Part shown: positions 11,461 through 59,655 of the stretch, piece by piece | Layout: every line of letters begins with the position of its first letter | Numbering within the stretch: the first letter of the stretch is position 1 | Origin: Cyanidioschyzon merolae | Lineage: Eukaryota | Assembly: GCA_000091205.1 (NCBI GenBank) | Contig: AP006499.2 | Direction: 5' to 3' (one strand) | DNA length: 64,000 bases | Position numbers and translations under genes: made by a program | Notes under the pieces: generated by a model | Told to the model about the DNA's origin: nothing | Database searches by the model: none | The model's input: the letters and a program-made list of their open reading frames with translations, nothing else

Positions 11461-11881
11461 CTTTTCTCGTTTGGCGCGCATCTACGTGCGCTTTTGTCGA
11501 GAGCTGCGTGCACCAACGAACTGCGCACACCTGGTTGGTGTGCAGCTACGCTGCATGTTCCTCGGGGGCAAACTGTGAAGGCGTACCAACGTCAACGCAC
11601 TTGAGAGCAGGGCGTCTCGGTCTCAGTCTCCGAAGCGCACAGGCAAGCGTTTGCCGCTTCGAAGCAGCAGGGCGACGCTCGCTCGTGCCGCCCCAGCCGT
11701 GACGGCTTGTCGCTCGCACCGGACGGCTCGTGCGAATAGAGGCCGCCAGCTGCTACAGCACCCTCACTGTATTCCAAAATCTCGTTGTGTAGGTCTACAA
11801 TTCAGACGCTGAGACCGGTGCTGGTGGCGAGCAACGGTCTCAGAACCGTCACCACTTGCAAGCGACCCTGAGCATCCGACT

Positions 11882-14929: not shown

Positions 14930-15229
14930 CCAGCAACGAAAGAGCCGTTACACGAGCTTTGACCTGCATCGGAACCGAGGTCGAATGAGCGGCGAGCGCG
15001 TAGGCGACAAGCTGCAGCCGCTTCGCCCTGGGCTCGTTCAGCTCTGCATTCATTCCGCAGTGTGCATGTGATAAGCCTTGATAGCATGTGGGTATTTGCT
15101 GCTCCTGTCAAGCAACCGAATCATATACAGTGGAATGGAACGATCGGGCATGAAACCTGGCGACTCTGCGGGATCCGGGTCGGTGCACTAGACCCGTGTT
15201 CGATGACAATGCCTCCCTGAACTGGGCGC

Positions 15230-16000
15230 TCGATTCCAACCGTTCGACTTTGGCCCAGGGTTTTCATACACAGAGTCTCGACATCCAAAGTGCAGCAATA
15301 AGCGCCGACGCATTCCTAGGTAGTGCCCGCATGCCCGATAGTCTTTTCGGGATGTCTGCTTCGAGTTGTTGCAGCACGAAGTTGTCTTGGCACCGGCATT
15401 GCGATCCTTCGCGACGTCCTCGAATAAGGGTTCGTGAAATCATCGATATCGCTATTGGATTTATACCTACAAGCCGCAATTTTATTCTTTTCCGGACATT
15501 TTGAAAACAGGAACGCTTCACGTTTTCGATTTTTTCTTCGAGGGAGCTCATGATGACGGGAATTCCCTCCGTTGGGCCGATGAGAAAGAATCTCGACGTC
15601 GTCTCGTGACGACTCATTCACAAGCTCATGCCGAAAGTTCACCGAAGATGGCACGTCAAATAATCGTTTCTATTCTATAGACGAGGCCCGACCTCTGAAA
15701 GAGATCCAGGTAACATTATTCGACGGAAACATGCTACGGCTGTCGGGATGCGCTCGCAGGGGCTCCCGTCTCTTCTGATTGCTTGGAAAAGGATTCTGGA
15801 CTCGGACTTGAGTCATCGCAGCGCTCGCTTCCGGTGGGGAGTGCGTTACCGCTTTGCACCAGGGGGGTTTGCTTAGACGGAAAGAAAATTTCTCGAGAAC
15901 ATTTCGAGCCTGGATTCCTCGTCCAGTACTGGATTCATCATGAACAACATTGCCGTCCGCAAATCCATCATCGAATGGAACAGCAGGCGCTCGTTTTTCC
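15230..16000 (+). repeat. Diverged copy of the ORF-bearing dispersed repeat family (blocks B, C-like, A, D and downstream homology)
   Basis: Block B is gacatccaaagtgcagcaata at 15270-15300 (LDIQSAAI). Block A is gacgactcattcacaagctcatgccgaaagttcaccgaa at 15610-15650 (DDSFTSSCRKFTE). Block D is ggactcggacttgagtcatcgcagcgctcgcttccgg at about 15795-15830. Beyond that, catgaacaacattgccgtccgcaaatccatcatcgaatggaac is homologous to the reverse complement of 27540-27590 in the full-length copy. Confidence 0.7.
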
Positions 16001-17009
16001 AGCGAACAGCGTCGTCGCTGACGGGATCGCTCATAACAAGCCCGTACTCTTTGGGGACGCCATCAGGTGCGAAAACGGTGCACGGTATCGTGCCCGGCAT
16101 TCTCGATTGGTCAAGTGCATATCCGTCGAGCGATGAACGAAGGCGTCTCGAGCCACAGTGCAGCCCATGGAGGAGAAGCTGAAGTGCTTGACATACGAGA
16201 ACACCCGAACCGGAGCCAGACGCCACCGTTGCAAATCGGATATCGACGCAGTATGCAAAATCAAGATGAAAATGGCAAGAGAAGCGCAGATCGCTTCTTC
16301 TCTCTGTGCATGATATGCGTTGACAACCGGCAAAAGGGCGAAATTGTGACGTGCACGCCACCATGAACCTCATTCGACTGCTGACAGAGGAGCTGGAGGC
16401 ACAGGAGAAACCAGCGTATTGAAAAACGTGCATCAGACAGAGGGAAACAAACCAGTCGCAAAAAAAGCTCGCAAAGACTGGTGTTCACGAAATCTGGAAG
16501 AGGCCCGACATTTATCGCATACAACCGAGGTAGCTGTCTGGGTCTCCATCCATTTCAGTTTGGAATGGGCGTTGTGCAATACCGCGAAACCTTGGAGTCA
16601 GCTGTACGCTCGAGAATATCGACTTTGACCTACCAGTGCATTTTTGCGAATGATGCTCATGCCCGCAGAGCGCTCTAGTCCGGGAAATGAACATGCAGTG
16701 CAGATGTCAAGACGCTCCCGGTCACGCAGCCGGTCATCGGCGGATCGTCGCCTCACGGACAATCCACCACTTCGGTGTACGAGTAGATGCAAAGTCGCCG
16801 CTGACAAAGTCCAAACATGTCGACGGATTCGAGGACGCCCTGCTGGATTGCTTGCGCTACACAGGGCCCGTACTCCCGGAGCGATCACATTCCTAGATAG
16901 TCAACCTATGTCTAGTTTCGTTGCCCCCGTCTTCGCCATCCACCACGATCCAGTCCTTTAGGGACAATAATGTACATAACTGATACCCCGCATTGCAGCA
17001 GCGCCTGCA

Positions 17010-22513: not shown

Positions 22514-22929
22514 TCAACGAAAACGGTGCGTTGTGAACGGTGCGGCGGCGTTGGTGCTGGGCGATCCCAGGATCCTACCTGCCACGATGGCCCCTGTTCC
22601 GAAGAGCCAACCCCGGTACTCGTATCCGATGAGCATGGAGTTATGAAGGACATGCTATGTTTCCGCCTTTTGAAGTTTTGTGGATTTGGTTTTGACGAAC
22701 AATCTCGGTATTCGTCGTATGGCAAGAACGGCACAGGGATTCATACGTAATTTTCGGAGTCAAAGTCGTCGTTTCGGAGTGGCTACTCGGAGTTTTTGCT
22801 ATCGAAATCTTTCACATCTCTGTGATGATCATGACTCATGACGTCTTCAAGCAAGCGTTCGTAACACAACCGATGTCAATATCGGGTTCATACACACAAG
22901 CGCCCAGTCTTCACTATTCCTTGCGTGCG

Positions 22930-23300
22930 GCGTGCTCAAACCACGCAATCTTCAAGTTTACAACGCTCGTGTTTCCGGGAGACGCATCGCCGGGGCGATT
23001 CGCGACCTTGGATTAAGGCCAAACAAAACCCGACTTTATCTCTTGGGGACTTGTTCACTCGTTCATGCCGAAAGCTCACGGAGCTTGTCACGTCGAATAA
23101 CTAATCCTGTCCGAGAGACGAATGCTCTTCTCTCTGGGGCCATCGACGAAACAGCATTGAACGGCAGGATGATATCTCTCGCAGGGGATTTGCTCCCAGT
23201 GACTCCTGTTCCTTCTTTCCGCATCGCATAGTGTTTTGGACTCGGGCTTTTGTTATCGCAGCGATCGCTGCCGGTGCCGCGTGCGTCATTGCATTGCGCA
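22930..23300 (+). repeat. Truncated, diverged copy of the dispersed repeat family (C-like, A and D blocks; B block absent)
   Basis: gcgattcgcgaccttggattaagg at about 22985 is C-like. ggggacttgttcactcgttcatgccgaaagctcacggagcttgtcacgtcgaataac at 23048-23105 is block A and encodes DLFTRSCRKLTELVTSNN*. ggactcgggcttttgttatcgcagcgatcgctgccggtg at 23238-23280 is block D. Confidence 0.6.
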
Positions 23301-24176
23301 ACGCGCGCGTAGACGAGTCGAAAGTTCTCAGCTGGATCACCAGCGTGGATTTTCCCTCCCGTCCTTGTTCCATCATGGACAACATCGCTTTCCACGTGCC
23401 TTTGTTCGAATAGAACAGTCTGCGATTGCACTCTCGGAAGAGAGAGGACTCGCCCAGGGAATCGCCCAGAACAGGCTTGTTATCGTAGGGTACTGTACCG
23501 ACACAGTCGGCTTCCAGGGGCATGTACCGAGCGATGAAGCAAGTGCTCGTGCGTAGTAGGGCGGTCCTCTGACCAGGAGATGCTGTGATTGTATGACAGC
23601 GCCTGATTACAGTCTAGTGTCCAGGCTGCAAATGGCCCAGCGATGCTGTCCACGAAGAACATGAAACGGTAAGCATAACCAAGACTGCAAAATTCGCATG
23701 CGCATGAAAAAAAAAAGTCTCGATCACATGCGGAAACGCCCAAGTCGAGACTTGAATACTGCCATCAACATCCTTCGACTGCTGACAACGAAGCTGGAGA
23801 GAAAGAGAGACTTAAACCCGGAGATGCGCGAGAGGAAACGCGAGCAATCGCAGATACAACCTACCAAGGCCGGTGTTGATGGGAATCAGGAGCGACCCAA
23901 ACAATAGCATGGACTCCCGAATGAGAGAACTGGGACCCATTCCAGATTCATCCGATTTCGATGGACTATCAGCAGAGATGGAATATACAGGTCTAGCCAG
24001 AATCGAAGACGGCACGACGCGTTTACCGGGAAACAGGGCTCTCCGCCTCCGCTAGGCGCTGAGCTCTCATTTCGGCCTCTGTGTTGCGGAGCGCATTTCC
24101 CGTCTGGCAGTTGGAGCTCCCGCGCTGCCTCCGTTTTGAGGCATCCCTCGCTCAGAACATGGCGTCACAAGTGCGC

Positions 24177-26159: not shown

Positions 26160-26862
26160 ACTCGGAAACGAACTTCAGTTTGATTGATATCCTCAGTTCT
26201 GTCAGCCGCTCTACGTTCTGATGTCGAGCGATACAGGAGGTTAGGTTCTTCGCTGTATGGGTCCAACTTGCGAGGGCCGGGGTGAACCCCAACGGTCTGT
26301 CAGCTGCTCGGTGTTTTGTTCTCGAGTGATGCTGCGCTTGATGTCACTCGCTAGACGAGTACAAAGTCCGAGCTGGTCGTGCAGTGGGCAGAAAACGCCA
26401 AGCACTGCTTCTGACGCCACAGTCGACTGGTAAAAGTTCACCCTAGACGGCGTTTACCAGCATCTGTGACCAGTTCACGAGTATAGACTAGGTTGAGTAT
26501 AAATTAAAATCACAGAGAAATAGCTGTTTGTACTGAACTTGAACGTAGCAGACCCGCTGCTGGCAACAAACGAACGAAATAGCGACCGTTCGACCACAGG
26601 CGGCTTCGAAAGAAAGGCGTCGGCCTCACAAAAGAAAACGTAAAGTGAGCGCGCTCCTGGTAGCTATGTTGATCACTGCGAGTTCACGAGATGGAAGCGC
26701 TCGATATAACTACAACGTTGAAACACAGACGCGGAGATACACACCAACCCCGAAGTCGTTCAAACGGTGTTTCACTGTTGTGCGCTGCAGCGCATATTCC
26801 GAAACCCGTCTGCGACTGGAATGGAGCAGGCCCGATGAGCGAACACGGGCTTACACGCGATA

Positions 26863-28276
26863 CCCATGTCAGCATAAAATGGAACAGGTCTACTTACCTA
26901 GCAGGAGCGTACACCCCAAAGTTTTCGTCTCATTCCATCGCCATGGACGTCGGCCTTTACGGGATGTTTCTGCGACTGTTTCCCTTCTCTCTCTCTCTGT
27001 ATATTCTCTGGCTCGCCATACGCCGGTTTCCCCTGTTCCTCCAGCTGCGTTGTCAGCAGTCTCAGAATGCTGTCGCCGGTGTTCAAGTCCCGAATTCATC
27101 GCTTCCGGCTGTTTCAGACAGAATTCGCGCAAAGACAGTAGTTGCGTTCTACGCCTCGGTTGCCGTTTGCACGACTTGCTTCGTGTAGATCCTCGTTGCG
27201 CCCTTCACAGTACTGACACGTGACCATGGTCGGGTATGCCCGTACGTCCTGGGCACCTGCTTCCCCGAGTGCTGCCTGCCACATGCACTGGACGCTCACC
27301 TCAGGGGACGACCCCATTTCCGTGCCCAGTGCCGTACGCGATGAACACGGTCTTCCGCGAGGCGATACACTCGGCGAGCATGCTGACTGCTGTGCGCGCT
27401 CAAACACACACACACACACACACACAGAGACACACATACAGACACAGACACATACTGACACACAGATACACAGACTCACACACGTCCACGCTGCTTCATT
27501 CGAGAGCGGATTTTTCTGGGACCCGATGTTGCTCATCGTGAGACAGGGACCGGAAGGAGCACTCACGCTGGAGAACAAGTCGCGAAATCTCGACCCGTCA
27601 TCGCTGCATTCGTGTCCAGCGTCCGTCACCGCGCTGCACACACGAAGCAAGCACTGCGATGACTCAAGCCCGAGCTCGGGAAGATTCTGTACTTGAAAGC
27701 AAGCTCTCGTAGCGTACTCCACAAAACGTATCACGCTGGTGCCGATTCCCGTTTCTTCGCTAGAGAGAGACAGCGCGGGATTCACCTCCTGAAGCACATC
27801 CATCCTCTTGTCGTGACTGGCTCAGTGAGCCTTCAGCATGAGCCCGTGAACGAAACCTCAAGCGTCGGTGTCGACGGTGCCCGGTCGACAATCCAACAGT
27901 GCGAGTCGCTGCGCTCATGGCTGGCATAGGGAGAAAAAAAGATTCGAAAACTTGAAGAATCCGTAATGTAAGCATGTCGATCGTAAGGCAAGCGGGAGAA
28001 CGGATGCTTGTTGATACGGGTCGGTCAAAGATACCGGTTACTTGTCGAACAACTGTTCAATAGCTTCGCGAATCGTCTTGATTCCATTTCCGTAAAAACC
28101 TTAAGCGGGACAGCGTGGAAGAGGCCACGCCCAACTGACGACCCAGCATCCTAAAACTACGCATGAATCCACACACCTTGATTGCAGCACTTTGAATATC
28201 CATGCGATGCACGAAAAAAAACACGAGTCCGGAAAGATATCGAAAGACCTGAACAGAGCGACAAGTTCTGTTCGCC
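26863..28276 (-). repeat. Full-length member (copy A) of the ORF-bearing dispersed repeat family, about 99% identical to 39001-40411
   Basis: Direct comparison with 39001-40411 shows identity except for about six SNPs and microsatellite length differences (offsets of 12138 to 12135). It contains block B (atg gat att caa agt gct gca atc, MDIQSAAIKVCGFMRSFRMLGRQ, about 28140-28215 on the minus strand), block C (IKTIREAIEQLFDK*, about 28051-28095), a degenerate block A at about 27835-27860, block D at about 27640-27690 and an internal imperfect (CA)n at 27403-27484. Confidence 0.9.
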
Positions 28277-28428
28277 GTCTTCATCGGGCTGGGTCATGGA
28301 AGGACACCGCGACCGCCGCTGCGACAACTTTCCTCCGCAGCGTTCGCCACTGGCAACACCTCTAACGTCGACTGTAACACTCGACGGGAAGGGACCGACG
28401 ACCCGGTGCGACCAAAGTCCAGATCATT

Positions 28429-31400
28429 ATGGCTACTACAAGGAGAGATACTTTATTGAAAATACAGGCAGAGGTGCAAAACTGGTGGGAACAGGAGCAC
28501 GTCTTCGACGTTGACGCTCCAGAAGACTTTGATGCCGAGGGCGGCTGGTCCAGTCTCGGAGTGGAGCCTCGGCAGAAACCGACGTTCTTCGTCACGTTTC
28601 CTTACATCTACGCAAATGGACCGATCCACCTGGGTCACGCGTTTTCGCTGAGTAAGGCGGAGTTTGCAGTGGCGTATCAACGTATGAAAAGACGCCCGTG
28701 CCTCTTTCCCTTTGGCTTTCACTGTACGGGGATGCCGATCCAAGCGTCGGCGACGAAACTGGCCAGAGAGCTGGAAACCTACGGGTGTCCGCCTCAGTTT
28801 CCCGACACGCCTCAGCGTACAGGTGCAGACGCAGGCCTGGATGCACCTGTCGACGGCTCGGTGGGGCTAAAGTCGAAAGTTTTGGCAAAAACTGGCGGCC
28901 TCCGCTTCCAATACCGTATTCTGCAGGCGGTCGGTGTTCCCGACACGGAAATTCCCTCTTTCACGGATCCGTTCAAGTGGCTCATGTACTGGCCACCGAT
29001 CGGTATGCAGGATGCGAAACAGCTTGGACTGCACGTGGACTGGCGGCGTTCCTTCATCACCACAGAGGCGAACCCGTATTACGACGCGTTCGTGCGGTGG
29101 CATTTCGAAAAACTCCGAGCACAAGGTCGTATCAAGTTCGGAAAACGCTACACCATCTATTCCCCGCTAGACAGGCAGGCCTGTGCGGATCATGATCGAG
29201 CTAGTGGCGAGGGTGTCCAACCACAGGAATACGTGCTGATAAAAATGCAGGTACTGGAGCCGTTTCCGGCTGTGTTGGAACCGCTCGCTGGGCGACGAGT
29301 CTACCTGGCTGCCGCTACATTGCGTCCAGAGACTATGTACGGTCAGACGAATTGTTGGATAGCGCCCGACGGAAGCTACGGTGCCTACGAGGTCAACGCA
29401 GATGGCGATGTGTTTATTGTCACAGAGCGAGCAGCGCGGAACCTCGCCTTTCAGTATTGGTCACCAGTCTACGGGGAGACACGCTGCCTATTGGGGCCCT
29501 TCCCAGGCGCGGCGTTGCTGGGTGCCGCAGTGCGCGCCCCGCTTAGCAGCTACGAGCACGTCTATGTGCTACCGATGCTAAGCATCACATCGGACAAGGG
29601 TACTGGAGTCGTTACCAGCGTACCGAGCGATTCACCCGACGATTACCGTGCGCTGCAGGACCTGAAAGAGAAGCCTGCTCTGCGTCGCAAGTACGGTCTC
29701 CGGGATGAGTGGGTGTTGCCCTTTGAACCGGTGCCCATCATTCAAGTGCCCGAGATGGGATCGCTCTCTGCTCAGGCAGCCTGTGAACGGTATCGGGTGC
29801 ACTCCCAGAACGATCGCGATGCGCTCGCCAAAGCCAAGGATGAAGTCTATCTGCGGGGCTTTTATGACGGAGTGCTCTTGGTGGGCCCCCATGCCGGCCA
29901 GCGCGTTCACGTTGCCAAGCCACTGATTCGTCAGCTGCTGCTCGACCAAGGCGATGCGGTGGTCTACTCGGAGCCAGAGCGCCCTGTTGTATCACGCTCC
30001 GGCGATGAGTGTGTGGTCGCGCTCTGCGACCAGTGGTACATCGATTACGGTGAGGAGCAGTGGAAGCAGCTCGCCAGAACGTGTCTAGAGGCCATGGAGA
30101 CGTACCACCCGGAAACGAAACGCAGTTTCGAAGCAGTCCTTGAGTGGCTTCGCGAATGGGCGTGCTCTCGTTCGTTCGGACTGGGAACGCGTCTGCCTTG
30201 GGACCCGCAGTATGTGATCGAATCACTCAGTGATAGCACGATCTATATGGCATACTACACCGTTGCACACATCCTGCATCGGGACTTGAACGGCCAGGTT
30301 CCGGGGGCGGCTGGTCCAGCCAGCCAACTCACTCCGGCTGTCTGGAACTATGTTTTTCTCGGTCAAGGCGATGCAGAATCTCTCCCGATACCCAGCTCTG
30401 TTGCACGAGCGATGCGGCGCGAGTTTCTCTACTGGTACCCGCTGAATCTGCGCGTGAGCGGCAAAGACCTGATCAATAACCATTTGACGTTCTTCATCTA
30501 CAACCATGTGGCTATCTTTCCGCCCGACAAGTGGCCTTTGGGAGTGCGCGCAAACGGCCATATTATGATCAACAATGAGAAAATGTCCAAGTCAACGGGC
30601 AACTTTCTCACGCTAGCGGAGGCAGTACGGAATTTCTCCGCAGATGCGGTGCGATTTGCGCTCGCGGATGCCGGCGACGGCGTTGATGACGCCAACTTTC
30701 AAGTGAAGACGGCGGATGAGGCTATTTTGAAACTGACAACTCTTTTAGCGCTCGCCACTGAAGCGCAGGCTCTGCTCAAGAATGGGCAGATGCGTTCAGG
30801 TCAGCCGCTTCAGTTCTGGGATCGCGTTATGGAGGCGGAAGTGGATGCACTGGTGGCAGCCGCAGCGCACGCGTACGAACGACTCGAGTTTCGAGACGCC
30901 CTCAAGTTCGCGTTCTATGAATTGCAGGATGCACTGGGGATTTGGCGGGTCGCTGTTGGCGGGGATACCGACCTCACAAAACTGCATCATGAGGTATGGC
31001 GTCACTATATTCATGCGCAGGTGATTGCGCTCTACCCGATCTGTCCGCATACGTGTACTTGGATATGGAGACGGCTGCTCCACGAAAAGTCGCCAGCCCC
31101 GCCAATGCACTGGCTGGAAACGAGCCCTTTACTGGGGTCACCCGAACGGGTCGCCATTCGAGCTGCCGGTCGCTATCTACAGGCGCTTTTGCATCGAGCC
31201 CGACTCGTGCTGCAGAAACGCCTTGCGCATCGATCGCAACGTGCAGGGGATGCTGCTGCCCCTACTGCTTCTACCAGCACCGATGACAAGGAAGAGCGCG
31301 AGCGCGACCCCAGTGATCAAGTAGGTGCTCGAGCTGTGCGCGTACGACTCGTGGTTCGCACGACACCAACAGCTTGGCAAACTCGCTGCGTCGAACTTGT

Positions 31401-31701
31401 TCAACAGGCGTATGACCCTACGACTCAGTCGTTTGCAGCGGACCTGCCGAAACGCATAGCTTCGGATCCGGTCTTGCGACGGGTTGCCAAACGAGCAATG
31501 GCACTGGCGATGACGTTGCGGGAGCGGAAGGACTTTACGGTGGCGCTTGAGTTTGACGAAAAGGCGGTACTTTTGGAAAATCTCGGCTACCTAGCGCAGC
31601 AGCTGGGCGTGCATGAAGTGGAACTAGATGTCGATGGCCCCGAAGCGGAGCAGCGCGGTGTCATCATGGGCGAACCCGTTATTCTCGTGTTTGATGCATA
31701 A
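28429..31701 (+). CDS. Leucyl-tRNA synthetase, cytosolic (archaeal/eukaryotic type)
   Basis: 1090 aa. It has the HIGH-region FFVTFPYIYANGPIHLGHAFSLSKAEFAVAYQRMKRRPCLFPFGFHCTGMPIQASATKLARE and a KMSKS motif (NEKMSKSTGNF). Both are colinear with eukaryotic cytosolic LeuRS. Confidence 0.95.
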   Translation: MATTRRDTLLKIQAEVQNWWEQEHVFDVDAPEDFDAEGGWSSLGVEPRQKPTFFVTFPYIYANGPIHLGHAFSLSKAEFAVAYQRMKRRPCLFPFGFHCTGMPIQASATKLARELETYGCPPQFPDTPQRTGADAGLDAPVDGSVGLKSKVLAKTGGLRFQYRILQAVGVPDTEIPSFTDPFKWLMYWPPIGMQDAKQLGLHVDWRRSFITTEANPYYDAFVRWHFEKLRAQGRIKFGKRYTIYSPLDRQACADHDRASGEGVQPQEYVLIKMQVLEPFPAVLEPLAGRRVYLAAATLRPETMYGQTNCWIAPDGSYGAYEVNADGDVFIVTERAARNLAFQYWSPVYGETRCLLGPFPGAALLGAAVRAPLSSYEHVYVLPMLSITSDKGTGVVTSVPSDSPDDYRALQDLKEKPALRRKYGLRDEWVLPFEPVPIIQVPEMGSLSAQAACERYRVHSQNDRDALAKAKDEVYLRGFYDGVLLVGPHAGQRVHVAKPLIRQLLLDQGDAVVYSEPERPVVSRSGDECVVALCDQWYIDYGEEQWKQLARTCLEAMETYHPETKRSFEAVLEWLREWACSRSFGLGTRLPWDPQYVIESLSDSTIYMAYYTVAHILHRDLNGQVPGAAGPASQLTPAVWNYVFLGQGDAESLPIPSSVARAMRREFLYWYPLNLRVSGKDLINNHLTFFIYNHVAIFPPDKWPLGVRANGHIMINNEKMSKSTGNFLTLAEAVRNFSADAVRFALADAGDGVDDANFQVKTADEAILKLTTLLALATEAQALLKNGQMRSGQPLQFWDRVMEAEVDALVAAAAHAYERLEFRDALKFAFYELQDALGIWRVAVGGDTDLTKLHHEVWRHYIHAQVIALYPICPHTCTWIWRRLLHEKSPAPPMHWLETSPLLGSPERVAIRAAGRYLQALLHRARLVLQKRLAHRSQRAGDAAAPTASTSTDDKEERERDPSDQVGARAVRVRLVVRTTPTAWQTRCVELVQQAYDPTTQSFAADLPKRIASDPVLRRVAKRAMALAMTLRERKDFTVALEFDEKAVLLENLGYLAQQLGVHEVELDVDGPEAEQRGVIMGEPVILVFDA

Positions 31702-32570
31702 AGTGCCTCTGACACAATACGAGGTCGCATGTGGGCGACAATTAGACCTGCGCACGGTGCTGCTGCGAGCACTGTTATCCTAGACAGCGCAGGTGGCGCT
31801 TTCGGATATTGCCAGGAGGAGACTTTTTGTTCGTGTTTAGTTTGCAATCTGAAAGCGGTACACCAGTTCGGTGTTAGAAGCGGAAAACCCTCGCACGGAC
31901 TGCTACGGATCTGTGCTGACTGGGAATCACTCGAGCGTTGTTGTTGCTCCAGAGGCGGCCTCGCTGAACCAGAACATGTGCCAGTTCAGTTTAGCAGACG
32001 TTGAGGTACCGAGCTTTTTGCAGGCGTCGCAAGGAGGAAGGACGGCCCTGCGACGCCTGTGCGTACGTCGGCACTAGACTCCCTGTCAAACGAGCATGCC
32101 GAGCGCTGAACGATTCCAGCAAACGCACGGCGATGTAGCGATGCTGCATTCGAGTATAGCACAGAATTCCCGACAGCACCATTGCGAGTATGCGAATGCC
32201 TGCCGCCCCCGCGATACCATCCCGAAGGTGTTTTCCATTGTATTGGACTCGTGTTTTGGAAAACTGATTCGGACAGGTGGATTCGTGGATGTGCGTCCTG
32301 TATCGCAGTTTATCCAGGTCTGGATATGAAAGAGGTTTCTCGGTTTCCAGGGGATACTTCCAGCGGATTCGAGGATACGGGTGCTGTTGCTCAGTCCATA
32401 CAGGTTCGATTGTCGTCTGCATTCCTCCGAATGCTCATGTATGACGCTACCGCTTTCGGCAATGTTTAAGGACTCCGTTGAAATCCATGGGCATCACTCA
32501 GCATCGATAGAAGAGCGCTGTGCTCGCGCCTGCACTCCACGGTCTCCGCCGGATGCCCGTGCAGGTCCTC

Positions 32571-32598
32571 CATACATACACACACACACACACATACA
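32571..32598. repeat. (CA)n microsatellite
   Basis: catacatacacacacacacacacatacac, lying between the convergent LeuRS and IPMS 3' ends. Confidence 0.85.
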
Positions 32599-33198
32599 CC
32601 CTGATTGCATCGCGGAAGGAGCCAGTGCATCCTGCATCTGCGCCCCGGATCACGATAACGCCTGCGAGAATTCGTATCGTTCACTTTGTCGAGATGCCTA
32701 ATGGGGTCCTGTGCTTTTCGACAGAAAAGCATACGTGACCGCCTCCCAGATCGTTGGACGAAGCATGCGGCCTCGTATTCGACGCGGACTCTGGTGTTGC
32801 ATCTGCTTGACTTCAATATGCACAGCACCTTTTTTATTTGCAAGGGACCACCATGGCGTTCAGTAATACGTGTACCATAACAGTAAACCGGCCATGAAAC
32901 ATACTCAGTCGACAGATGCACCAGCCGTGCCGCTCGTGTCATCGCGAGTGCGCCGCCGTCTTGCAGCAGGTCCTGGTTTCCGAGGCCTCCCGAACGACCC
33001 TCGAAGAAGGGAGCAAATTGTCCAAAATTGGTTTGGATAACTGCACGTGTTTCTCGTTCGATACGGGCGTCATGCCACATATTGCGAAAACTCCATGCAG
33101 ACTGCAACTTCATGACGTTTTGCATTGTATCGGGTACTTCAGCGAAGGCTCGCCAGATCCGCTCAGAGCGCAACCGACGACGGCGGCCGCCACATGCA

Positions 33199-35160
33199 TC
33201 AGGCACTGCTATGTTGCGGGTGAATCGGCTGGGGCGTATTCGTATTCCGGCTGCATCGATTCAGAGCATTCACATAGGCCTGAACCGAGGCGGTCACCAC
33301 GTCGGTATCTGCGGCATAACCCGTAAAGATGCGATCCATGCGCCGATCCCGAACGCGAACCATAACCTCACCAAGCGAATCGATGCCACTCGTGACGCTG
33401 GACACAGTATACTCGAGCAGCTCAATATCCAGTCCATGCTGCGCAACGACGGCGTTGACAGCACAGTACGCCGCATCGACGGGGCCTGTACCAGTCCGCG
33501 GAACGGTAACCTCTTTGCCGGTCTCCATGACAAGCAGAGTCACCGTTGCGGTCGGTATGCTCGATGAGCCGCACTGCACCTGCACTCGCTTGAGTTTGAA
33601 ATGCTCGACCCCGATTTCCTTCAGGCCACCACTCACAATCGCCTCCAGGTCCGCGTCGGTAATTTCGCGTTTTCGATCCGCAAGCTCCTTGAAACGCAGA
33701 AACGCTCGGTTGAGGTCGTCGTCGCTGAGCTCGAAGCCCAGTTCCGTGAGGCGTGCCCGAAACGCCGCTCGGCCACTCAGTTTGCCCAGAGAGATCGCAT
33801 TCGTGGTGGCACCCACGGTATCAGCGCTCAGGATCGAGTACGTAGAGGCGTTACGGAGGTATCCGTGCTGATGTATACCCGACTCGTGACGGAAAGCGTT
33901 AGCGCCCACCACGGCCTTATTCGGTGCAACGACCATACCGGTGAGGCTCGACACCATTCGACTCGTCTTTGCAATTTCTCGAAACTGAATGTTCGTCAGC
34001 TGACGATCACTATGACCCGACGCAATATCATCCCGCCCAAAAACTCTGGCATAGTAATTGCGGCGCACGTACAGCGCCATGACGAGCTCTTCGAGAGATG
34101 CATTCCCCGCCCGTTCCCCGATTCCATTCACGGTAACCTCGACCTGGCGAGCGCCTGCCTCACAGGCAGCGAGGAAATTCGCAACACTCATACCCAGATC
34201 ATCGTGACCGTGCACGGAGAGAATAACATCGCCGGTCCGAACGCCCGGGACGTTCTCGTAGATGCCTCGTATGAGGGTGTACATTTCGTTCGGCGTAATG
34301 TACCCGCAGGTGTCGGGGACGTTGAGCGTGGTCGCCCCTGCCTCCGCGGCCCGACGGAAAGCCTCGTAGAGAAACTCGGGGTCTGACCGCGTTGCGTCCT
34401 CAGCCGAAAACTCCACGTCCTTGCAAAGCGAGCAGGCGTAACGCACTTGTTCCGATATGATGTCGAGCACCTCAGCGCGCGTCTTGCGCAACTTGTGCTC
34501 GAGATGAATATCGGACGTGGCGATGAAGGTATGGATACGGGGAAATGCCGCAACCTCTATGGCTTCCCAGCATCGTTTTATATCTGCGGCGGTGGCGCGA
34601 GCCAGGCCGCAAATAATCGGCGGATTGGGCCGGTTCCCAACTTGCTCCGCAATCCGACGCACAGCCTCAAAGTCGCCGTTGCTCGCAGCCGGGAAGCCGG
34701 CCTCCAGAACGTCAACACCAAGCGCGGCCAGTTGACGCGCCAGTGTCAGCTTCTCTTCGGCGTTCATGGCGGCTCCTGGAGACTGCTCGCCGTCGCGACA
34801 CGTGGTATCGAAGATGCGCACGCGCTCAGGGTCCCGCCCCGTGGCGACATCGTGCGCAGTAGGCTTCACCGGTACGCGTACGACTGGGCGCTCTGCTCTA
34901 GCGCTCGCGTCACTAACCGCGTTGCCTATCATGAGTAAGCGCTGAAGCGAGTCCCTTGTGCGTAAACCTCCAAGGCCTCTGCTTCGTGGCCGCCCCGCCG
35001 CACGGGGCACACCACGCCGACTCGCGAACGGAAAGGTAAACGCTGCCCTTGACGCTTGATCCGAGACATGTCCAAAACACTCCTTACGTACGCTGGATAT
35101 GGTCCTGTGGCTCGTCCATGATGGACCACAGAATGCTATGGTAGCGTACGCTTGCCACAT
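33199..35160 (-). CDS. 2-isopropylmalate synthase (LeuA type I, bacterial/plant-like) with an N-terminal transit-peptide-like extension
   Basis: 653 aa. [58 protein letters not shown] gives the DRE-TIM metallolyase N-terminal signature. [49 protein letters not shown] gives the HxH metal site. A C-terminal LeuA allosteric domain is present. The first 110 or so aa are Arg/Ser-rich. The real start may be an internal Met (MIGNAVS...). Confidence 0.95.
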
Positions 35161-35180
35161 GTTTTACACTCGCAACAGTG

Positions 35181-35227
35181 CACACACACACGTATACACA
35201 CACGTACACACACACGCACACACACAA
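35181..35227. repeat. Imperfect (CA)n microsatellite in the IPMS/DEAD-box divergent intergenic region
   Basis: cacacacacacgtatacacacacgtacacacacacgcacacacacaac. Confidence 0.85.
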
Positions 35228-37153
35228 CAGGTGTCCTGCGTGCGCACTGAACGCTCGCCGTCGCGTTGCACGCATAGCGCCCTGCGATACGTGCGCGGGA
35301 TCGCCGGCGCACCGGCGATCTTTTGTTGGACAGAACGTCCACACGTACACCAGGCATCCCCGATGAGGCGCTTGAGATCAGCGCGCGTGCGCAAGCATCC
35401 ATCATTACTCGTTTGACCTGCTCGTTCAACCACCGATATACTCCCTGTGAAATACTGGATATTTGCGACTTTGCATAGTCCACCGTGTCTGAATCTAGCA
35501 TACAAAATGTCGCCGATATTTCCAAAGTGAACACAGCAGGAAACCTGACCAACTTTGTCATACAAGTGAGGGCATCGGCACGTCGATACCGAGATCGCCT
35601 GTTTTCATTCATCGTGCACTGACACTAGCGCATGGCACGGGGATGCAGCATGTCGCTGGCATCATTATCACCGTTATCATCGTCGTCGCGCCTCGAGCCG
35701 AAGCCCTCACTTGTATGAGAAATTTGGTCAGGTTTCCGTTCTGCGTTTGCATTGGCGCGATCGGCGACATATTGGATACTAGAGGCAGGATCGACGGACA
35801 ATGGAACGTGGGAAATAACCGAGATCTCTGAAGGATCCTATGACTCATGCAAGTTTACGGATGACGGGGCGTGGAACGATGAACCCGTCCCTGACCGTTG
35901 ATGTCAAGTGCGTTCCCGGGAGTCTCCGGTCCGTATAAACGACCTGCGCAACAACGGTATCCATATGGACACCGAAACGCTAGAGCGGGACCTGCTGCTG
36001 ACCTGCATGTGCCACAGGCGGGGTTTCGGAGAGGCGCTGCGGCTCCACGGCGGGCGCCGCTAAGCACCCAGACGCCATCCAGCGCATGTCGATATCTTGT
36101 CAATTATGCAACGGTTATGGATCGTACTGGCTGTACAAACCACTCCTCGGCGAGACGACGACACATCGTGCATGCAAGTAATGGGCAGCATAACTTTGGG
36201 CGATCCGCTACCGCTTCTATGCTGCGGTGGTAACGAGCACGCTGAGAGTCGCCTTGTCCGTCCATCTAATCTCAGCGTAAAAGTTGCGGGACTTTTGGAG
36301 CACGACAACGCATGCTTTGCTCCCCGCAGCGAACGGTAACAGGAAACAGAGCTTCCGGTCTTCTGGTCCAGGAGCATCCCGAACGCCATCGTTGCGCAGC
36401 GTGCGGGCTCGCACACCCCCTGAAACATGTGCCGTATTTGGAGAGTATCTTGAGTGCACGATTGCTGTATGGAACCAGAGAGGAGTGCTCAGATCCCCTG
36501 CAGTTGCTTGTATGCTACATTAATTTCGCAGCGCACCCTACCTCAGGAACAAAGGTTGGATACGAATATCACCAAAACAGCGCTAGCTGCATACCATTCA
36601 GCCATTGTTCGCATGATGGGTCTCGCGGTGCTCCCAGGATATGTAGAGGGAACGCGATCCCACATCCGCAAAGACATTCAAAAGCTCTGCTGTCTCTGGT
36701 TGTCTCTTTGGCAGTGGCGGTTGCACCTTCGACGTCCCAGCAAGCACCAGAGGTGGCCTCGGTAGCCGCAGGTTTATTGGATTCATCCGACCTCGATTCT
36801 CAGCGCACGACTGCTCCGGAGTTTGTGTAACCTACTGGATACTGCGGGAGCGCAATTAGCTCCATCCTGGATACCACTTCATAGCCTGGGTGCATCCATG
36901 AGGTTGAATCTGTTTCGCTCCGTCGATCTCCCGACTAGTGAGCACCACGAGTGCGCCACGGCGCTCTGGCGCAGCCGCAACGCTTGTTCTACATCTCTAC
37001 GTAGGCGGCTTCGAAGCCGTGTTTGGATGTTGGCTGTCTGGCAGTGTCGCGCACGGAACGGAACCTCAGTAGTCTTGTCGCTCATACGATATAAAAATTT
37101 CACAGGCACTCTCATCCGCTAGTTGGTAGCTGCATCCTTCAGTCTCTGTCAAG

Positions 37154-38365
37154 TTGGCGTCGACAAGTGGACGTTCGTGGAGCCGGCTGCTTTCCTCAGA
37201 CCTGATCCAGGCGTTGCATGCGCTCCGTCTGAGCCGGCCGACCCAGGTACAGGCCACGGCTATACCTGCGGCGCTAGAAGGTAATCATGTAGTTCTAACT
37301 GCGCAGACAGGCTCTGGAAAGACCCTGGGATATGTTCTTCCGTTACTAGAGCTACTACGGCGAGACCGTGCTCGTGAGGCACGAACGACCAGCCCAGCGT
37401 CGCCGTCGCCTCAGGCACTGATCGTCGTTCCGACTCGCGAGTTGGCTGCTCAAGTCTGCCGTGTCTGGAGCGACTTTACGGAATGCACGGGTCTGACGTG
37501 CTCGCTGCTGACGCGACAAGCGTTTCAAACTTCGAATGAAGTTGCCGCATGGGTGTCGCCCGCTAGGGATACTGCTGGAAAGGGAGAACCGGCGCTCTGG
37601 ACTCGCTTGCGCCATCTGCGCTACCTTGTTCTAGACGAGGCAGACAGCCTGTTTGCTATGCAGCAGCGCAACCAGCTTGCACCGCTTCCGTTGCATCGAC
37701 TCCAAGGCGGACAGCTGTGGTGCGTTGCCGCCACGATGACTCGCGGCTCACTCGCCCAGGTCGAAGCGCTGGCCCGAGCGCTGACGCCATCCCGAAAACT
37801 CTTCATTGCTCGAGATAATGGGCTCCACGAACCGCCACGAATTGTGCGTATTCGTTTCGAACTAGTTCAGCATCCGCCGCAGAAGGTGACGCGTTTGCTC
37901 GAATGGCTGCAAGCCGACGCTCGTGGTCTACTCCGAGACGGCAAAAGTACCCTCGTGTTCTGTAATTCCATCCAGACCTGTCGTTTCGTGCAGCACACGC
38001 TTCGTGAGCAGGGCGTCCTTGCCCTCGCGTGCCACGGCGGGATGCCTACACGTATGCGAGACGCGGCAGTAGAGCAATTCGCCAACGGCACCGCTGATGT
38101 GCTGATTTGTTCGGATTTGATGGCACGGGGAATCGATTGGCCCTTTGTCGGGCGAGTGCTCAGCTTTGACGCACCAGCAACATACCATCATTTTCTGCAC
38201 CGAGCAGGACGTCTACGTAGGGGCGGTGATTGCATCACGCTCATACGCAGAGCGCGCAGAGAGCAAGACCTCGCCATGATGATTGCGAAACGGTTTCCGG
38301 AGCGCACTCATTGGCAGGTAATGGAGCAGCAACCAAGCCTTGGGCGTGATCGGCTCCGGCCCTGA
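37154..38365 (+). CDS. DEAD-box ATP-dependent RNA helicase (short, about 400 aa core only)
   Basis: It has a Q-motif region (LSSDLIQALHALRLSRPTQVQATAIPAAL), motif I TAQTGSGKTLGYVLP, motif II LVLDEAD, a motif III-like VAATMT and a motif VI-like HRAGRLRRGG. Confidence 0.8.
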   Translation: MASTSGRSWSRLLSSDLIQALHALRLSRPTQVQATAIPAALEGNHVVLTAQTGSGKTLGYVLPLLELLRRDRAREARTTSPASPSPQALIVVPTRELAAQVCRVWSDFTECTGLTCSLLTRQAFQTSNEVAAWVSPARDTAGKGEPALWTRLRHLRYLVLDEADSLFAMQQRNQLAPLPLHRLQGGQLWCVAATMTRGSLAQVEALARALTPSRKLFIARDNGLHEPPRIVRIRFELVQHPPQKVTRLLEWLQADARGLLRDGKSTLVFCNSIQTCRFVQHTLREQGVLALACHGGMPTRMRDAAVEQFANGTADVLICSDLMARGIDWPFVGRVLSFDAPATYHHFLHRAGRLRRGGDCITLIRRARREQDLAMMIAKRFPERTHWQVMEQQPSLGRDRLRP

Positions 38366-39000
38366 GCATCCGACGACTTGCTTTGACACATTCTCGCTTT
38401 TGGAAGAGGTGCCTGCTGTTGTGAAAGGGGTGTGTTTGGACGCTTTCTGGTCTTGCGGATACAGACGCGATTGTTCATGAGGGCTTCTGTGGTCGCAGGA
38501 ACGTTTCAAGGAATTGTGTAGCTTCGATCCCGACGTATTGGTGCCTCGCTCGCCGAAAGCTAACTCGTCTTTTGCTGTGCATAAATCTGTTTCTCTGATG
38601 AAGCTTTGCGGTGTTGTACTGCGACCGCACTGAAGTGATGCGACTTGGAGGCACGTTGGCCGGTCCGTCGCAGAAAATTAGCGCAGCTTTTCCGGAAGTG
38701 TCATGAACACTCCGCATCTATGGCACGATGCAGCGAACCACCGGAATGTCACTGCTCTATCGATCGCTTCTGTTTCGATTGTTTCGCTCTGGAATTGGAC
38801 ATGAAAAGCGTGATGCGGCCAACCGAGGCGAATCGCATGCAGGACGCAGTCTCTCGACTTTGTCTGCAATCGTCGGCACCAGTATTTGTCAGGATGATGA
38901 ACAGTGGAAGAACGACTCCGTTTTGTCGGGGTATGCAAGCCGTGTGCACGTTGAAAGATACTCGCAAGCCGGTGCGGTTGGAATCGCGGGGTGCACAATA

Positions 39001-40411
39001 CCCATGTCAGCATAAAATGGAACAGGTCTACTTACCTAGCAGGAGCGTACACCCCAAAGTTTTCGTCTCATTCCATCGCCATGGACGTCGGCCTTTACGG
39101 GATGTTTCTGCGACTGTTTCCCTTCTCTCTCTCTCTGTATATTCTCTGGCTCGCCATACGCCGGTTTCCCCTGTTCCTCCAGCTGCGTTGTCAGCAGTCT
39201 CAGAATGCTGTCGCCGGTGTTCAAGTCCCGAATTCATCGCTTCCGGCTGTTTCAGACAGAATTCGCGCAAAGACAGTAGTTGCGTTCTACGCCTCGGTTG
39301 CCGTTTGCACGACTTGCTTCGTGTAGATCCTCGTTGCGCCCTTCACAGTACTGACACGTGACCATGGTCGGGTATGCCCGTACGTCCTGGGCACCTGCTT
39401 CCCCGAGTGCTGCCTGCCACATGCACTGGACGCTCACCTCAGGGGACGACCCCATTTCCGTGCCCAGTGCCGTACGCGATGAACACGGTCTTCCGCTAGG
39501 CGATACACTCGGCGAGCATGCTGACTGCTGTGCGCGCTCAAACACACACACACACACACACAGAGACACACATACAGACACAGACACATACTGACACACA
39601 GATACACAGACTCACACACGTCCACGCTGCTTCATTCGAGAGCGGATTTTTCTGGGACCCGATGTTGCTCATCGTGAGACAGGGACCGGAAGGAGCACTC
39701 ACGCTGGAGAACAAGTCGCGAAATCTCGACCCGTCAACGCTGCATTCGTGTCCAGCGTCCGTCACCGCGCTGCACACACGAAGCAAGCACTGCGATGACT
39801 CAAGCCCGAGCTCGGGAAGATTCTGTACTTGAAAGCAAGCTCTCGTAGCGTACTCCACAAAGCGTACCACGCTGGTGCCGATTCCCGTTTCTTCGCTAGA
39901 GAGAGACAGCGCGGGATTCACCTCCTGAAGCACATCCATCCTCTTGTCGTGACTGGCTCAGTGAGCCTTCAGCATGAGCCCGTGAACGAAACCCAAGCGT
40001 CGGTGTCGACGGTGCCCGGTCGACAATCCAACAGTTCGAGTCGCTGCGCTCATGGCTGGCATAGGGAGAAAAAAAGATTCGAAAACTTGAAGAATCCGTA
40101 ATGTAAGCATGTCGATCGTAAGGCAAGCGGGAGAACGGATGCTTGTTGATACGGGTCGGTCAAAGATACCGGTTACTTGTCGAACAACTGTTCAATAGCT
40201 TCGCGAATCGTCTTGATTCCATTTCCGTAAAAACCTTAAGCGGGAGAGCGTGGAAGAGGCCACGCCCAACTGACGACCCAGCATCCTAAAACTACGCATG
40301 AATCCACACACCTTGATTGCAGCACGTTGAATATCCATGCGATGCACGAAAAAAAACACGAGTCCGGAAAGATATCGAAAGACCTGAACAGAGCGACAAG
40401 TTCTGTTCGCC
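39001..40411 (-). repeat. Full-length member (copy B) of the ORF-bearing dispersed repeat family; it forms a direct repeat with 26863-28276 around the LeuRS/IPMS/DEAD-box segment
   Basis: See copy A. The six-frame ORFs are identical between the two copies. For example, 38991..39326 matches 26691..27188 and 39036..39224 matches 26898..27086. Confidence 0.9.
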
Positions 40412-41379
40412 TTTTTCACCTGACACGAGTGCATGAGCATCGTTCTATCGCTGCAGCGGCCAAGACTGGCCCGTAAGAAAAGTTGAAAACCCGCATGCTG
40501 ATGACCAGTTCGCAAACTGGGATACCCTCTCCCGCTTATGATGCTACCCAATCAAAAGATACCGTCTTGCGCTGTCATGGGTATGCGTCTTGTACAATAG
40601 CTACCAAACGCTCTTACGCTCACATGCTCGTGCGATGAATTTGGTCAAAAATAGCGTTTCAGGAAGCGCTTCCCCGATGACAACCGCACCAAGGCATCAG
40701 TTGGTGCTCGTGCACGGCTTCTGCACCCGCAATGCTGTGCTCAGGTAGGATTCGTGCATCGCACTCGAAATTTCCAGGTGCGCGATTGCCGAAGGTCAAA
40801 AACTCCATAAAAGATTTCACATTCTTCACACTCCCTTCATCGGTCCATGTATCCAAGCAAAGTGCTCCTTGAGGAGTCTCGCCTCAACCAAACTTGAATG
40901 GCGCTCTGTTTATCACCAACGTCGCATGCATGAATCGAAGCGAATGCCCCCGATTGCTCAGTTGGCTACAGTCTCCATGAAAAAGACCTCAAATCGCGCA
41001 AGTATCTCAGCATGCTCTGCGAGCAGCAAACGAATCGCCTCACATCAACCCTAAAATAAACGTGTCGAGGAATCGACGGCGGGGCGTTAAAGAGCGGCTA
41101 AACCCCACGTGCAAACATTCACTGGATACCACCCTGGATACGTTGTAGCTGACGCTGCATCCGATACTTGATGACCCTGCAATAACCGAGTTTTTTCGAT
41201 CAACAGAATGTTTCGATGGACTTGAATACCCGATATGGCCGCGTACCTACCCGCCGCCACCACCAACACCACCAACACTACTAAGACCAACACTTTCACC
41301 ATCACCGCCGTCAGCCCTTGGACGTTGGTGCGGTAACGATTTTCATGGGAAAACGGAGGCAGGTGGGCGTTATCTTCAT

Positions 41380-59624: not shown

Positions 59625-59655
<31 letters not shown>

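Follow-up and report, generated by a model that had tools for sequence, protein, structure and literature searches.

Fossil copies of a probable mariner-type DNA transposon with a Fanzor1 remnant between the genes of Cyanidioschyzon merolae

Are the six related loci scattered through a 64,000-nt stretch (the window) of nuclear DNA of the red alga Cyanidioschyzon merolae 10D a family of small, possibly spliced protein genes, or are they the remains of a mobile element? The origin of the DNA is borne out by its Tic110 ORF, which is 100% identical to the C. merolae 10D protein; an exact look-up of the LeuA and Tic110 ORFs among encoding contigs gave no record. The dispersed family with ordered conserved blocks that the earlier note had described is genuine: blastn self-comparison and MAFFT alignments recovered six homologous loci at essentially the claimed positions, and a 25-nt degenerate pattern of block A matched exactly these six loci (chance expectation 0.00). 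All are intergenic copies of one unit of ~1.4 kb (Table 1); their places had been given correctly, but the lengths of c1, c2 and c3 had been under-called. The copies are 1.35-1.44 kb long with the exception of c1 and c6, and the homology of c6 ends at the start of a fragment from an unrelated element, CMe-1A. Pairwise identity is 56-64% for all pairs in the window other than c4 and c5, which are 99.2% identical over 1424 bp (c5 stretch 38998-40418) and differ in both flanks and in the outermost ~15 nt of the 5' terminal inverted repeat (TIR). With respect to the neighbouring genes the copies lie in divergent, tandem or convergent arrangements, at no consistent distance or orientation.

Table 1. 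Copies of the 1.4-kb unit in the window and landmarks of copy c4 (HTH, helix-turn-helix; TRF, program call)
Feature	Position	Strand	Remarks
c1	6082-7109	-	TIR to TIR; internal deletion of ~370 bp
c2	15191-16571	+	full length; 5' flank TA
c3	22617-23963	+	full length; 5' flank TA
c4	26861-28296	-	1436 bp, complete TIR-to-TIR unit by alignment landmarks; nhmmer model span as in all other copies
c4 5' TIR	28272-28296	-	diverged in c4: TGACCCAGCCCGATGAAGACGGCGAAC; preceded by TG (family mostly TA)
c4 IS630/Tc1-mariner transposase remnant	27372-28212	-	HTH, DE..., ...DN..H, ...YSP; holds blocks B, C, A and D
c4 (CA)n-like microsatellite	27404-27483	.	TRF; inside c4, near the transposase/Fanzor junction
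c4 putative Fanzor1 (TnpB-like) C-terminal remnant	26916-27371	-	~165 codons; VIVAYGTG..., TMVTCQYC...YCLC, RDLN...ILRLL
c4 3' TIR	26861-26885	-	...GTTCCATTTTATGCTGACATGGG, then TA
c5	38999-40431	-	TIR to TIR; near-twin of c4
c6	58652-~59311	+	5' half only

The family is not limited to the window. At least 14 further distinct copies were found outside it in C. merolae-like contigs. These finds comprise 7 distinct copies in hot-spring metagenome contigs, 7 ORF clusters derived from other copies of the unit and two copies in L051. Copy density in the sampled regions was 6 per 64 kb, 2 per 20 kb and 2 per 11 kb, and the element is absent from the syntenic intergenic regions of the relatives L001 and L002. 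Furthermore, the unit is discrete, with every copy matching the same nhmmer model coordinates and conservation falling to background at either end.

A majority consensus of 1406 nt was built from 12 copies; near nt 851 and again near nt 1030, its frames were joined by visual judgement. The residual protein-coding signal reported in the earlier note proved real, as the consensus restores an open transposase frame, ~253 codons long and containing one stop. Its translation matched the NCBIfam model IS630 (NF033545) with 59.6 bits (E 3e-16, profile positions 17-240 of 299), a score below the 100 that this model requires for naming a whole protein, which is no surprise for a truncated and reconstructed ORF, and it exceeded the cut-off of 28.6 for Pfam DDE_3 (PF13358) with 37.8 bits. 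It shares 41% identity with P0020, an intact metagenomic protein with DDE_3, over 100% of the consensus-ORF length, and aligns with the mariner transposase of PUl-1 (Smith-Waterman with shuffling, P~3e-5). When five individual copies were translated in three frames, none of the translations matched Pfam, hence only the consensus is informative. Block B (DIQSAAI...FRMLGR) lies in the true ancestral frame and belongs to the N-terminal helix-turn-helix of the transposase, in agreement with its earlier reading as coding. The catalytic motifs DE(T) and DN..H are present in the consensus and the ORF stops at YSP, ahead of the third acidic residue, a region retained in relatives (...PPYSPWFNPIK in P0020, ...PPYSPQLNPVE in PUl-1). 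As the catalytic triad is incomplete, the family is non-autonomous and not an active element.

The 3' third of the consensus reads HLTTVKCHRC...FRLCMKC...NRDLNAAINIL and, as judged from this reconstruction, is a putative C-terminal remnant of Fanzor1. It contains the C-terminal signature of Fanzor/TnpB proteins, [TS][TS]-x-x-C4 zinc ribbon-x(5,50)-RD (PMC3627910), parts of which are visible in c1-c4 as well as in n3, n4 and n6. The segment aligned colinearly with the Fanzor1 proteins of CMe-1A (35 bits, P~2e-6) and PUl-1 (34 bits, P~1e-7) in Smith-Waterman comparisons with shuffling, while the cross-control alignments were not significant (P 0.4-0.7). In profile searches, Pfam Cas12f1-like_TNB (PF07282) gave 23.5 bits (E 6e-5) and did not reach its cut-off of 26.3, PF01385 did not match the consensus, and the NCBIfam TnpB models did not match the 3' part. 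With the Fanzor-like consensus, phmmer against PDB returned weak irrelevant matches only, and a word-indexed protein search gave 73 candidates, none significant. We also considered that RDLNAAINIL might be the third catalytic motif of the transposase (PDLNPIE) after a 130-residue insert, and rejected this because a C4 ribbon and an AYG...PVKG block precede it and two Fanzor1 proteins match colinearly. The RuvC-I Asp and the N-terminal Fanzor domains are missing, the sequence upstream of the ~165 codons being transposase; with these C-terminal codons only, the segment is a gene remnant and not a Fanzor gene. The relics keep the 3' end of Fanzor together with the right TIR, the part in which Fanzor-type systems encode their guide RNAs, and they sit densely between genes. 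A check for a guide (omega) RNA in the 3' 410 nt found no conserved structure (-3.1 kcal/mol), although decay may hide one.

The two homology blocks are directly adjacent, spacer-free, and meet at the same junction in all ~15 full-length copies, as they would if the 1.4-kb unit were a complete ancestral fusion gene with an IS630-type N-terminus and a TnpB-like zinc-ribbon/RuvC-III C-terminus. However, a shared junction is equally expected from amplification of one deleted master copy. The transposase part breaks off immediately ahead of the third catalytic residue, the N-terminal three quarters of Fanzor with RuvC-I are missing, and the three segments occupy three different consensus frames, so that we see only a slim chance for a fusion gene.

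The consensus ends form a TIR of 25-28 nt with 21/25 (23/28) matches, compared with a maximum of 17/25 in 2000 random internal comparisons. TA directly abuts 7 of 13 5' ends, with TG at 4 others, and 5 of 9 readable 3' ends. TA is enriched at the flanks, yet most copies lack it on one side or both, n6 and n7 having both; the putative target-site duplications are degraded. The ends of a Helitron, an LTR element or a poly-A-tailed element are absent at the boundaries of c4 and c5. The signature, which had been taken as undescribed, in fact combines an IS630/Tc1-mariner transposase, the C-terminus of Fanzor1/TnpB, TIRs and flanking TA, and the second option of the earlier note, a non-autonomous mobile element with an ORF, came close to the truth. 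We regard it as highly likely that the six loci represent fossils of an internally deleted, non-autonomous DNA transposon of the Tc1/mariner-IS630 type that once carried a Fanzor1 gene.

The first option of the earlier note, multi-copy small and possibly spliced protein genes with the short ORFs of blocks B, C and A under selection, drew on block B, where the differences among three copies fall at third codon positions; in addition, some ORFs of 75-89 aa are annotated as hypothetical proteins in metagenomes. Over the longer comparison (759 + 492 nt), however, mismatch to the consensus at codon positions 1/2/3 is 0.261/0.258/0.271 in the transposase part and 0.32/0.30/0.33 in the Fanzor part; this equality over the three positions indicates neutral decay. 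No period-3 signal emerged from the profile of conservation, and six-frame tblastn between copies found similarity in every frame. Every copy has stops (1-12) and frameshifting indels (4-16 per copy, 2 in the partial copy n2). The earlier note itself took dN/dS of ~1 with scattered frameshifts to speak against coding, and by that measure its proposal of small ORFs conserved under selection fails. The start codon is not conserved, with an ATG at block B in c4 and c5 only, and none of 10 ORFs checked (7 from c4/c5) stands under an NCBI record. The block C peptide is an out-of-frame reading when compared with the intact homologue P0020, and block A is not open in one frame in all copies, as TGA interrupts it in c4 and c5 and a 1-bp indel separates these two. 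The blocks read in different frames are not exons; they descend from a single ancestral ORF that frameshifts have broken up. Splicing between them finds no support: the candidate 23-nt micro-intron (6925-6947, minus strand) is one match against 0.36 by chance and the other copies do not have it. Of the internal microsatellites, the (CA)n-like repeat does lie inside c4 and, at 39542-39619, inside c5, the other aligned copies having none, but the (GCAC)n at 59589-59655 is beyond the homologous part of c6. The present-day copies encode nothing functional, and the chance that they are small protein genes is practically negligible.

Conservation for RNA function, in ~1.4-kb structured or long non-coding RNA genes, would suit the intergenic position of the copies, some of which lie beside divergent gene starts, and interspersed repeats of C. 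merolae have been reported to be transcribed (PMC1955436). Against this, scanning the window for Rfam families and tRNAs gave nothing, RNAalifold reached consensus energies of only -1.2 kcal/mol (5' 760 nt) and -3.1 kcal/mol (3' 410 nt), its covariation terms being positive and thus unfavourable, and descent from a coding transposon fully accounts for the conservation. We therefore hold RNA genes to be extremely improbable.

The internally deleted transposon that we favour would have had the following ancestral form: TA, a TIR of ~25 nt, a leader of ~70 nt and the first ~255 transposase codons, with two HTH motifs and the first two catalytic Asp and an end at the YSP preceding the third catalytic residue, then the last ~165 Fanzor1 codons, with the AYG...PVKG block, the TT-x-x-C4 zinc ribbon and the RDxNAAxNI RuvC-III motif, and finally ~60 nt, a TIR and TA. 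The architecture by itself points to internal deletion, in which ~2 kb would have been lost from a parent mariner element of the PUl-1/PGv-1 type with transposase and Fanzor1; an autonomous parent, with intact transposase and full Fanzor1 between the same TIRs, was not found. The deleted unit presumably relied on an autonomous relative for its mobilisation in trans, by cut-and-paste into TA sites, and its burst may have taken place in the C. merolae lineage after the split from the lineages of L001 and L002. The 99% identity of c4 and c5 would be due to ectopic gene conversion rather than to recent transposition.

Co-option of such relics by the host, which might for example use them as modules of promoters or insulators or as spacers marked by Polycomb and keep them at full length by selection, could explain two observations: although the genome is very compact and the copies have diverged from the consensus by ~26-31%, most of them have lost little of their length, and they are dense in every sampled region; moreover, H3K27me3 was found on about half of the C. 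merolae repeats (PMC5405695; bioRxiv 10.1101/2022.10.24.513474). Nevertheless, the copies show no consistent orientation or distance to neighbouring genes, the syntenic intergenic regions of L001 and L002 are entirely without the element, decay appears uniform and neutral, and the truncation of c1 and c6 is without apparent consequence. Co-option is hence very unlikely. We consider it very improbable that the relics, as the first recognisable trace of a mariner-borne Fanzor1 in C. merolae, are retained and not purely neutral debris; in that case the Fanzor1 of CMe-1A, which is still intact, might be an interaction partner of theirs, or they might serve as Polycomb-marked intergenic modules.

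For the fossil transposon, the meaning of these data is mostly one of annotation, as unknown intergenic repeats of a model alga become a classified transposon family. The C. merolae genome is often quoted at only 0.7% transposons. A putative second Fanzor1 lineage, TIR-bearing and mariner-associated, is added beside the unclassified CMe-1A, and the consensus could serve for masking the intergenic DNA of C. merolae, for instance in the choice of neutral integration sites. C. merolae is known for efficient homologous recombination, and c4 and c5 would offer a clean natural case in which dispersed repeats have undergone ectopic gene conversion.

Among known systems, mariner-type elements with Fanzor1 and TA duplications have been described as PUl-1, PUl-2 and PUl-4 of Pythium ultimum and PGv-1 of Phaeocystis globosa virus (Bao & Jurka 2013, Mob DNA 4:12, PMC3627910); they have TIRs of 24-33 nt, measure 3.4-4.4 kb, are low-copy (1-8) and mostly intact, and C. 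merolae is named among the Fanzor1 hosts in the same study. The C. merolae family shares with the PUl-1/PGv-1 type the order and orientation of IS630/mariner transposase and then Fanzor1 between TIRs, and the PUl-1 proteins align significantly with both halves of the 1.4-kb consensus. In contrast to this type, the unit is without ~2 kb (the transposase C-terminus and the N-terminal three quarters of Fanzor) and at only 1.4 kb cannot be autonomous, and the family is high-copy, heavily decayed and hosted by a red alga.

The Fanzor1 repeat already known from C. merolae, CMe-1A/TE-N2_CMe, has a 3169-bp consensus and ~150 + ~70 copies. It lacks both TIRs and a transposase remnant, and an intact Fanzor1 is still encoded by some copies (PMC3627910). 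It is very probably the same as the novel interspersed element of Nozaki et al. 2007, with 253 copies and a truncated ORF related to WSV486 (PMC1955436), as inferred from size, copy number and the presence of one Fanzor1 in WSSV AF332093. Like the 1.4-kb family, CMe-1A is Fanzor1-related and interspersed in intergenic DNA of the same genome, and its fragments are found in the window and adjoining several copies of the family. The Fanzor C-termini align (VVAYGAG...NRDFNAAINI in CMe-1A, VIVAYGTG...NRDLNAAINI in the 1.4-kb family) with only 27% amino-acid identity. No nucleotide match of CMe-1A to the 1.4-kb consensus was found by blastn with word size 7, a search that does match CMe-1A elsewhere in the window and loci, and identity of the family with the Nozaki/CMe-1A element was rejected because of this lack of nucleotide similarity. 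The 1.4-kb family differs further in its TIRs, TA flanks and transposase remnant and in that no intact copy was seen.

With IS630/Tc1-mariner (ITm) elements and their deleted derivatives, the family has in common a DDE_3/IS630-type transposase with N-terminal HTH motifs and short TIRs, and the TA at many of its flanks would fit their TA target sites; such derivatives likewise amplify from a deleted copy and then decay neutrally. The C. merolae unit differs from them in its Fanzor1 passenger remnant and, at 1.4 kb, is longer than classical MITEs such as Stowaway.

Blastn self-comparison of the window recovered the six loci (c1-c6) that the earlier note had reported as a dispersed repeat. Under sensitive settings these copies were mutually alignable over 0.55-1.4 kb at 56-64% identity, except for c4 and c5, whose identity reaches 99.2% across 1424 bp. 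When the window was scanned with a degenerate 25-nt pattern derived from the conserved block A, the matches were exactly the six loci (chance expectation 0.00). Multiple alignments and an nhmmer profile delimited a discrete unit: all copies span identical coordinates of the model, and at either end the conservation of alignment columns falls to the level seen in unrelated sequence. The 1.4-kb repeat family is real. [quoted passage not shown] All six copies are intergenic. Also intergenic are four minisatellites with long units (11015-11461, 49183-49743, 51820-52110 and 54415-54706; units of 89 bp x5, 70 bp x8, 74 bp x3.9 and 98 bp x3, identity 93-99%), related neither to one another nor to the 1.4-kb family.

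Copies of the 1.4-kb repeat and the Tic110 gene in the window
Feature	Position	Strand	Remark
c1	6082-7109	-	internal deletion
c2	15191-16571	+	
c3	22617-23963	+	
c4	26861-28296	-	copy singled out in the earlier note
c5	38999-40431	-	
c6	58652-~59311	+	5' half only
Tic110 ORF	41647-45303		100% identity to NCBI protein of Cyanidioschyzon merolae strain 10D

A majority consensus of 1406 nt was built from 12 distinct copies. In its 5' part a reading frame of ~253 codons is restored, interrupted by a single stop, and the translation matched the NCBIfam IS630-family transposase (59.6 bits, E 3e-16, profile positions 17-240 of 299) and Pfam DDE_3 (37.8 bits; gathering cut-off 28.6), with weak matches to HTH_33, HTH_Tnp_Tc3_2 and HTH_32 at the expected N-terminal positions. 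The transposase landmarks comprise the helix-turn-helix FRMLGRHFGVAPSTLCRW, which is block B of the earlier note, AIDETAFD (first Asp), FIMDNIAFHKS (second Asp) and LP..EYSP; homology ends after YSP, ahead of the third catalytic residue. P0020, an apparently intact metagenomic relative of 261 aa (Pfam DDE_3), is 41% identical to the consensus transposase over its whole length and has all landmark motifs in common with it. This alignment places block B in the same uninterrupted frame as the block C region, and the block C peptide with its shared stop codon, previously taken for a small ORF, is an out-of-frame reading of ...RKITDI.... Against the mariner transposase of PUl-1, a Pythium ultimum mariner-type element carrying Fanzor1, the 5' part gave P ~3e-5 (Smith-Waterman, shuffling). 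The P0020 gene (3511-4296 of L050, ENA contig k141_719607, 48% G+C) belongs to another organism; the protein reads ...PPYSPWFNPIKNVL, with Lys at the place of the third catalytic Glu/Asp of Tc1/IS630 transposases, and the contig stops 89 nt past the gene, leaving any Fanzor gene downstream out of view.

The ends of the consensus are inverted repeats of one another: CACCCGTGTCGGATGAAAATGGAAC agrees with the reverse complement CACCCATGTCAGAATAAAATGGAAC at 21/25 positions (23/28), the maximum in 2000 random internal comparisons being 17/25. The dinucleotide TA stands immediately beside this terminal inverted repeat (TIR) at 7 of 13 5' ends (TG at four more) and at 5 of 9 readable 3' ends, and on both sides of n6 and n7, two copies from metagenome contigs. 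TIRs with TA are a hallmark of the Tc1/mariner-IS630 superfamily. They are likewise stated for Fanzor-carrying mariners (PMC3627910).

YSP is followed by ~165 codons (...KKPVIVAYGTGHGNGGGHRGEPSVPVKGMYRAMK...EHLTTVKCHRCERR...RNFRLCMKCVDNSRKRRNRDLNAAINILRLL), with two frame changes in the consensus. This 3' part fits the published Fanzor/TnpB signature, [TS][TS]-x-x-C4 zinc finger-x(5,50)-RD (PMC3627910), and matched Pfam Cas12f1-like_TNB (PF07282) with E 6e-5 and 23.5 bits, just under the cut-off. Since NCBIfam, PDB phmmer and a word-indexed protein search with the 3' part gave no match, the Fanzor assignment was put to a direct test, with genuine Fanzor1 sequences from the PMC3627910 supplement for comparison. 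The 3' part was colinear with Fanzor1 of the known C. merolae repeat CMe-1A (35 bits; VVAYGAG...NRDFNAAINI) and with the C-terminus of PUl-1 Fanzor1 (34 bits). The corresponding Smith-Waterman scores were 91 and 94, those of shuffled sequences averaging 38 and 32 (maxima 61 and 53; shuffle P ~2e-6 and ~1e-7), and cross-controls, the 3' part against transposase and the 5' part against Fanzor, were at chance. Near the transposase/Fanzor junction a (CA)n-like microsatellite has grown within c4 and c5 (27404-27483 and 39542-39619, the two tracts differing by one CA unit); the (GCAC)n at 59589-59655, earlier counted as part of c6, is situated past the end of c6 homology.

The blocks had been read as conserved small ORFs under selection; they are instead pieces, put out of register by frameshifts, of a single ancestral transposase/Fanzor frame. 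Mismatches to the consensus, tallied in the ancestral frame, were 0.261/0.258/0.271 at codon positions 1/2/3 of the transposase part (759 nt) and 0.325/0.299/0.333 and 0.316/0.297/0.321 in two Fanzor segments, and such equality is the neutral expectation. In six-frame tblastn between copies, similarity was about equal whichever of the six frames was read, and the alignments ran through stops; period-3 conservation was significant in no 120-nt window. In the ancestral frame every copy is broken by 4-16 frameshifting indels (the partial copy n2 by 2) and by 1-12 stops, and an ATG is found at block B in c4/c5 only. Block A has a TGA inside it in c4/c5 and a 1-bp indel between the two, and the proposed micro-intron (6925-6947, minus strand) is a single match, against 0.36 by chance, that is not conserved in other copies. 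On these comparisons the copies are not coding now, and the ancestral frame is no longer under selection. A structured RNA was considered as well and found no support: neither an Rfam family nor a tRNA was found in the window, and RNAalifold energies were only -1.2 kcal/mol over the 5' 760 nt (11 copies) and -3.1 kcal/mol over the 3' 410 nt (9 copies), with unfavourable covariation terms in each case.

Further copies beyond the window, proposed in the earlier note as a check, are present in metagenome contigs. A single scan with the 25-nt pattern gave 47 loci, 12 of them the same chromosome region in ~99.5% identical hot-spring strains; the remainder yielded seven new distinct copies (n1-n7), two detected solely through adjoining a pattern-matching copy. 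A protein search with the reconstructed transposase added seven more ORF clusters, none closely matching the 13 copies, and a 20-kb locus (L051) has one full copy of 1398 bp and a second interrupted by a 1.5-kb insertion. These findings establish that the family is genuinely dispersed. At least ~20 distinct copies were sampled, which is a sample count and not a genome-wide number, and density was 6 per 64 kb, 2 per 20 kb, 2 per 11 kb and 2 per 5.7 kb in regions ascertained through the element itself. The split copy of L051 (1351-1792 and 3317-4264) is a nested insertion, its insert carrying CMe-1A fragments; on L014/L043 a nearly full CMe-1A copy directly adjoins n5, and both families concentrate in shared intergenic islands.

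The identical tract of c4 and c5 (26860-28283 and 38998-40418) begins ~15 nt into the 5' TIR, the outer bases of which differ, and near-identity stops at the final base of the 3' TIR, between unrelated flanks. A new insertion would look otherwise; the pattern resembles the outcome of ectopic gene conversion involving two old copies that lie 12 kb from each other. In the metagenome contig L027 (Ga0209012_1003373, 12,177 bp), window 30717-40418 continues directly into 28284-30705, closing a 12-kb loop via the c4/c5 repeat; this may be either a direct-repeat assembly artefact or a c4 x c5 recombination product (circle or deletion).

Two related cyanidiophyte contigs, L001 and L002 (Tic110 78% and 49% identical), keep the gene order tRNA synthetase, LeuA, DEAD helicase, Tic110, GTPase, FAD oxidase, and no trace of the 1.4-kb element was found in the syntenic regions. 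Their intergenic spacers are much shorter than those of C. merolae and also lack CMe-1A; a large share of C. merolae intergenic DNA in the window is therefore transposon-derived. The absence of the element fits a burst within the C. merolae lineage.

Fanzor-related repeats have been described in this alga before. Nozaki et al. (PMC1955436) reported a novel 253-copy interspersed element, whose truncated ORF is related to WSV486, and eight transposase-related elements like bacterial transposons. Bao and Jurka (2013; PMC3627910) described the unclassified Fanzor1 element CMe-1A (3169 bp, ~150 copies, without TIRs) and TE-N2_CMe (~70 copies), and listed one Fanzor1 in WSSV; in our view, the interspersed element of the former and the Fanzor1 element of the latter are very probably the same. 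CMe-1A has no nucleotide similarity to our consensus, and the 1.4-kb family is therefore a different one. Fragments of CMe-1A lie at 59287-59428 (-), exactly where c6 breaks off, as an inverted pair at 35329-35582 (+) and 35691-35941 (-), beside n4 and n5, and in L051. The inverted pair is also visible as a self-inverted match (35457-35820), and the window fragments represent the 5' ~250 nt of CMe-1A, the part common to TE-N2_CMe. In an EDTA annotation of C. merolae (bioRxiv 10.1101/2022.10.24.513474), 1755 pieces were assigned to DNA transposons, and the 1.4-kb copies may be among them; the literature searched (Repbase excluded) contains no description of the family as such.

Taken together, the family is best read as an ordinary decayed non-autonomous mariner-type transposon with a Fanzor1 remnant, and is of low general interest. 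No autonomous parent element was found. The unit is composed of TIR, ~255 N-terminal transposase codons, ~165 C-terminal Fanzor1 codons and TIR; a deleted copy of a PUl-1-like element presumably multiplied with an autonomous relative acting in trans, after which neutral decay set in, the copies now diverging 26-31% from the consensus. Its architecture is that of PUl-1 (3620 bp, transposase of 308 aa, Fanzor1 of 802 aa, 24-nt TIR, TA) minus ~2 kb from the middle.
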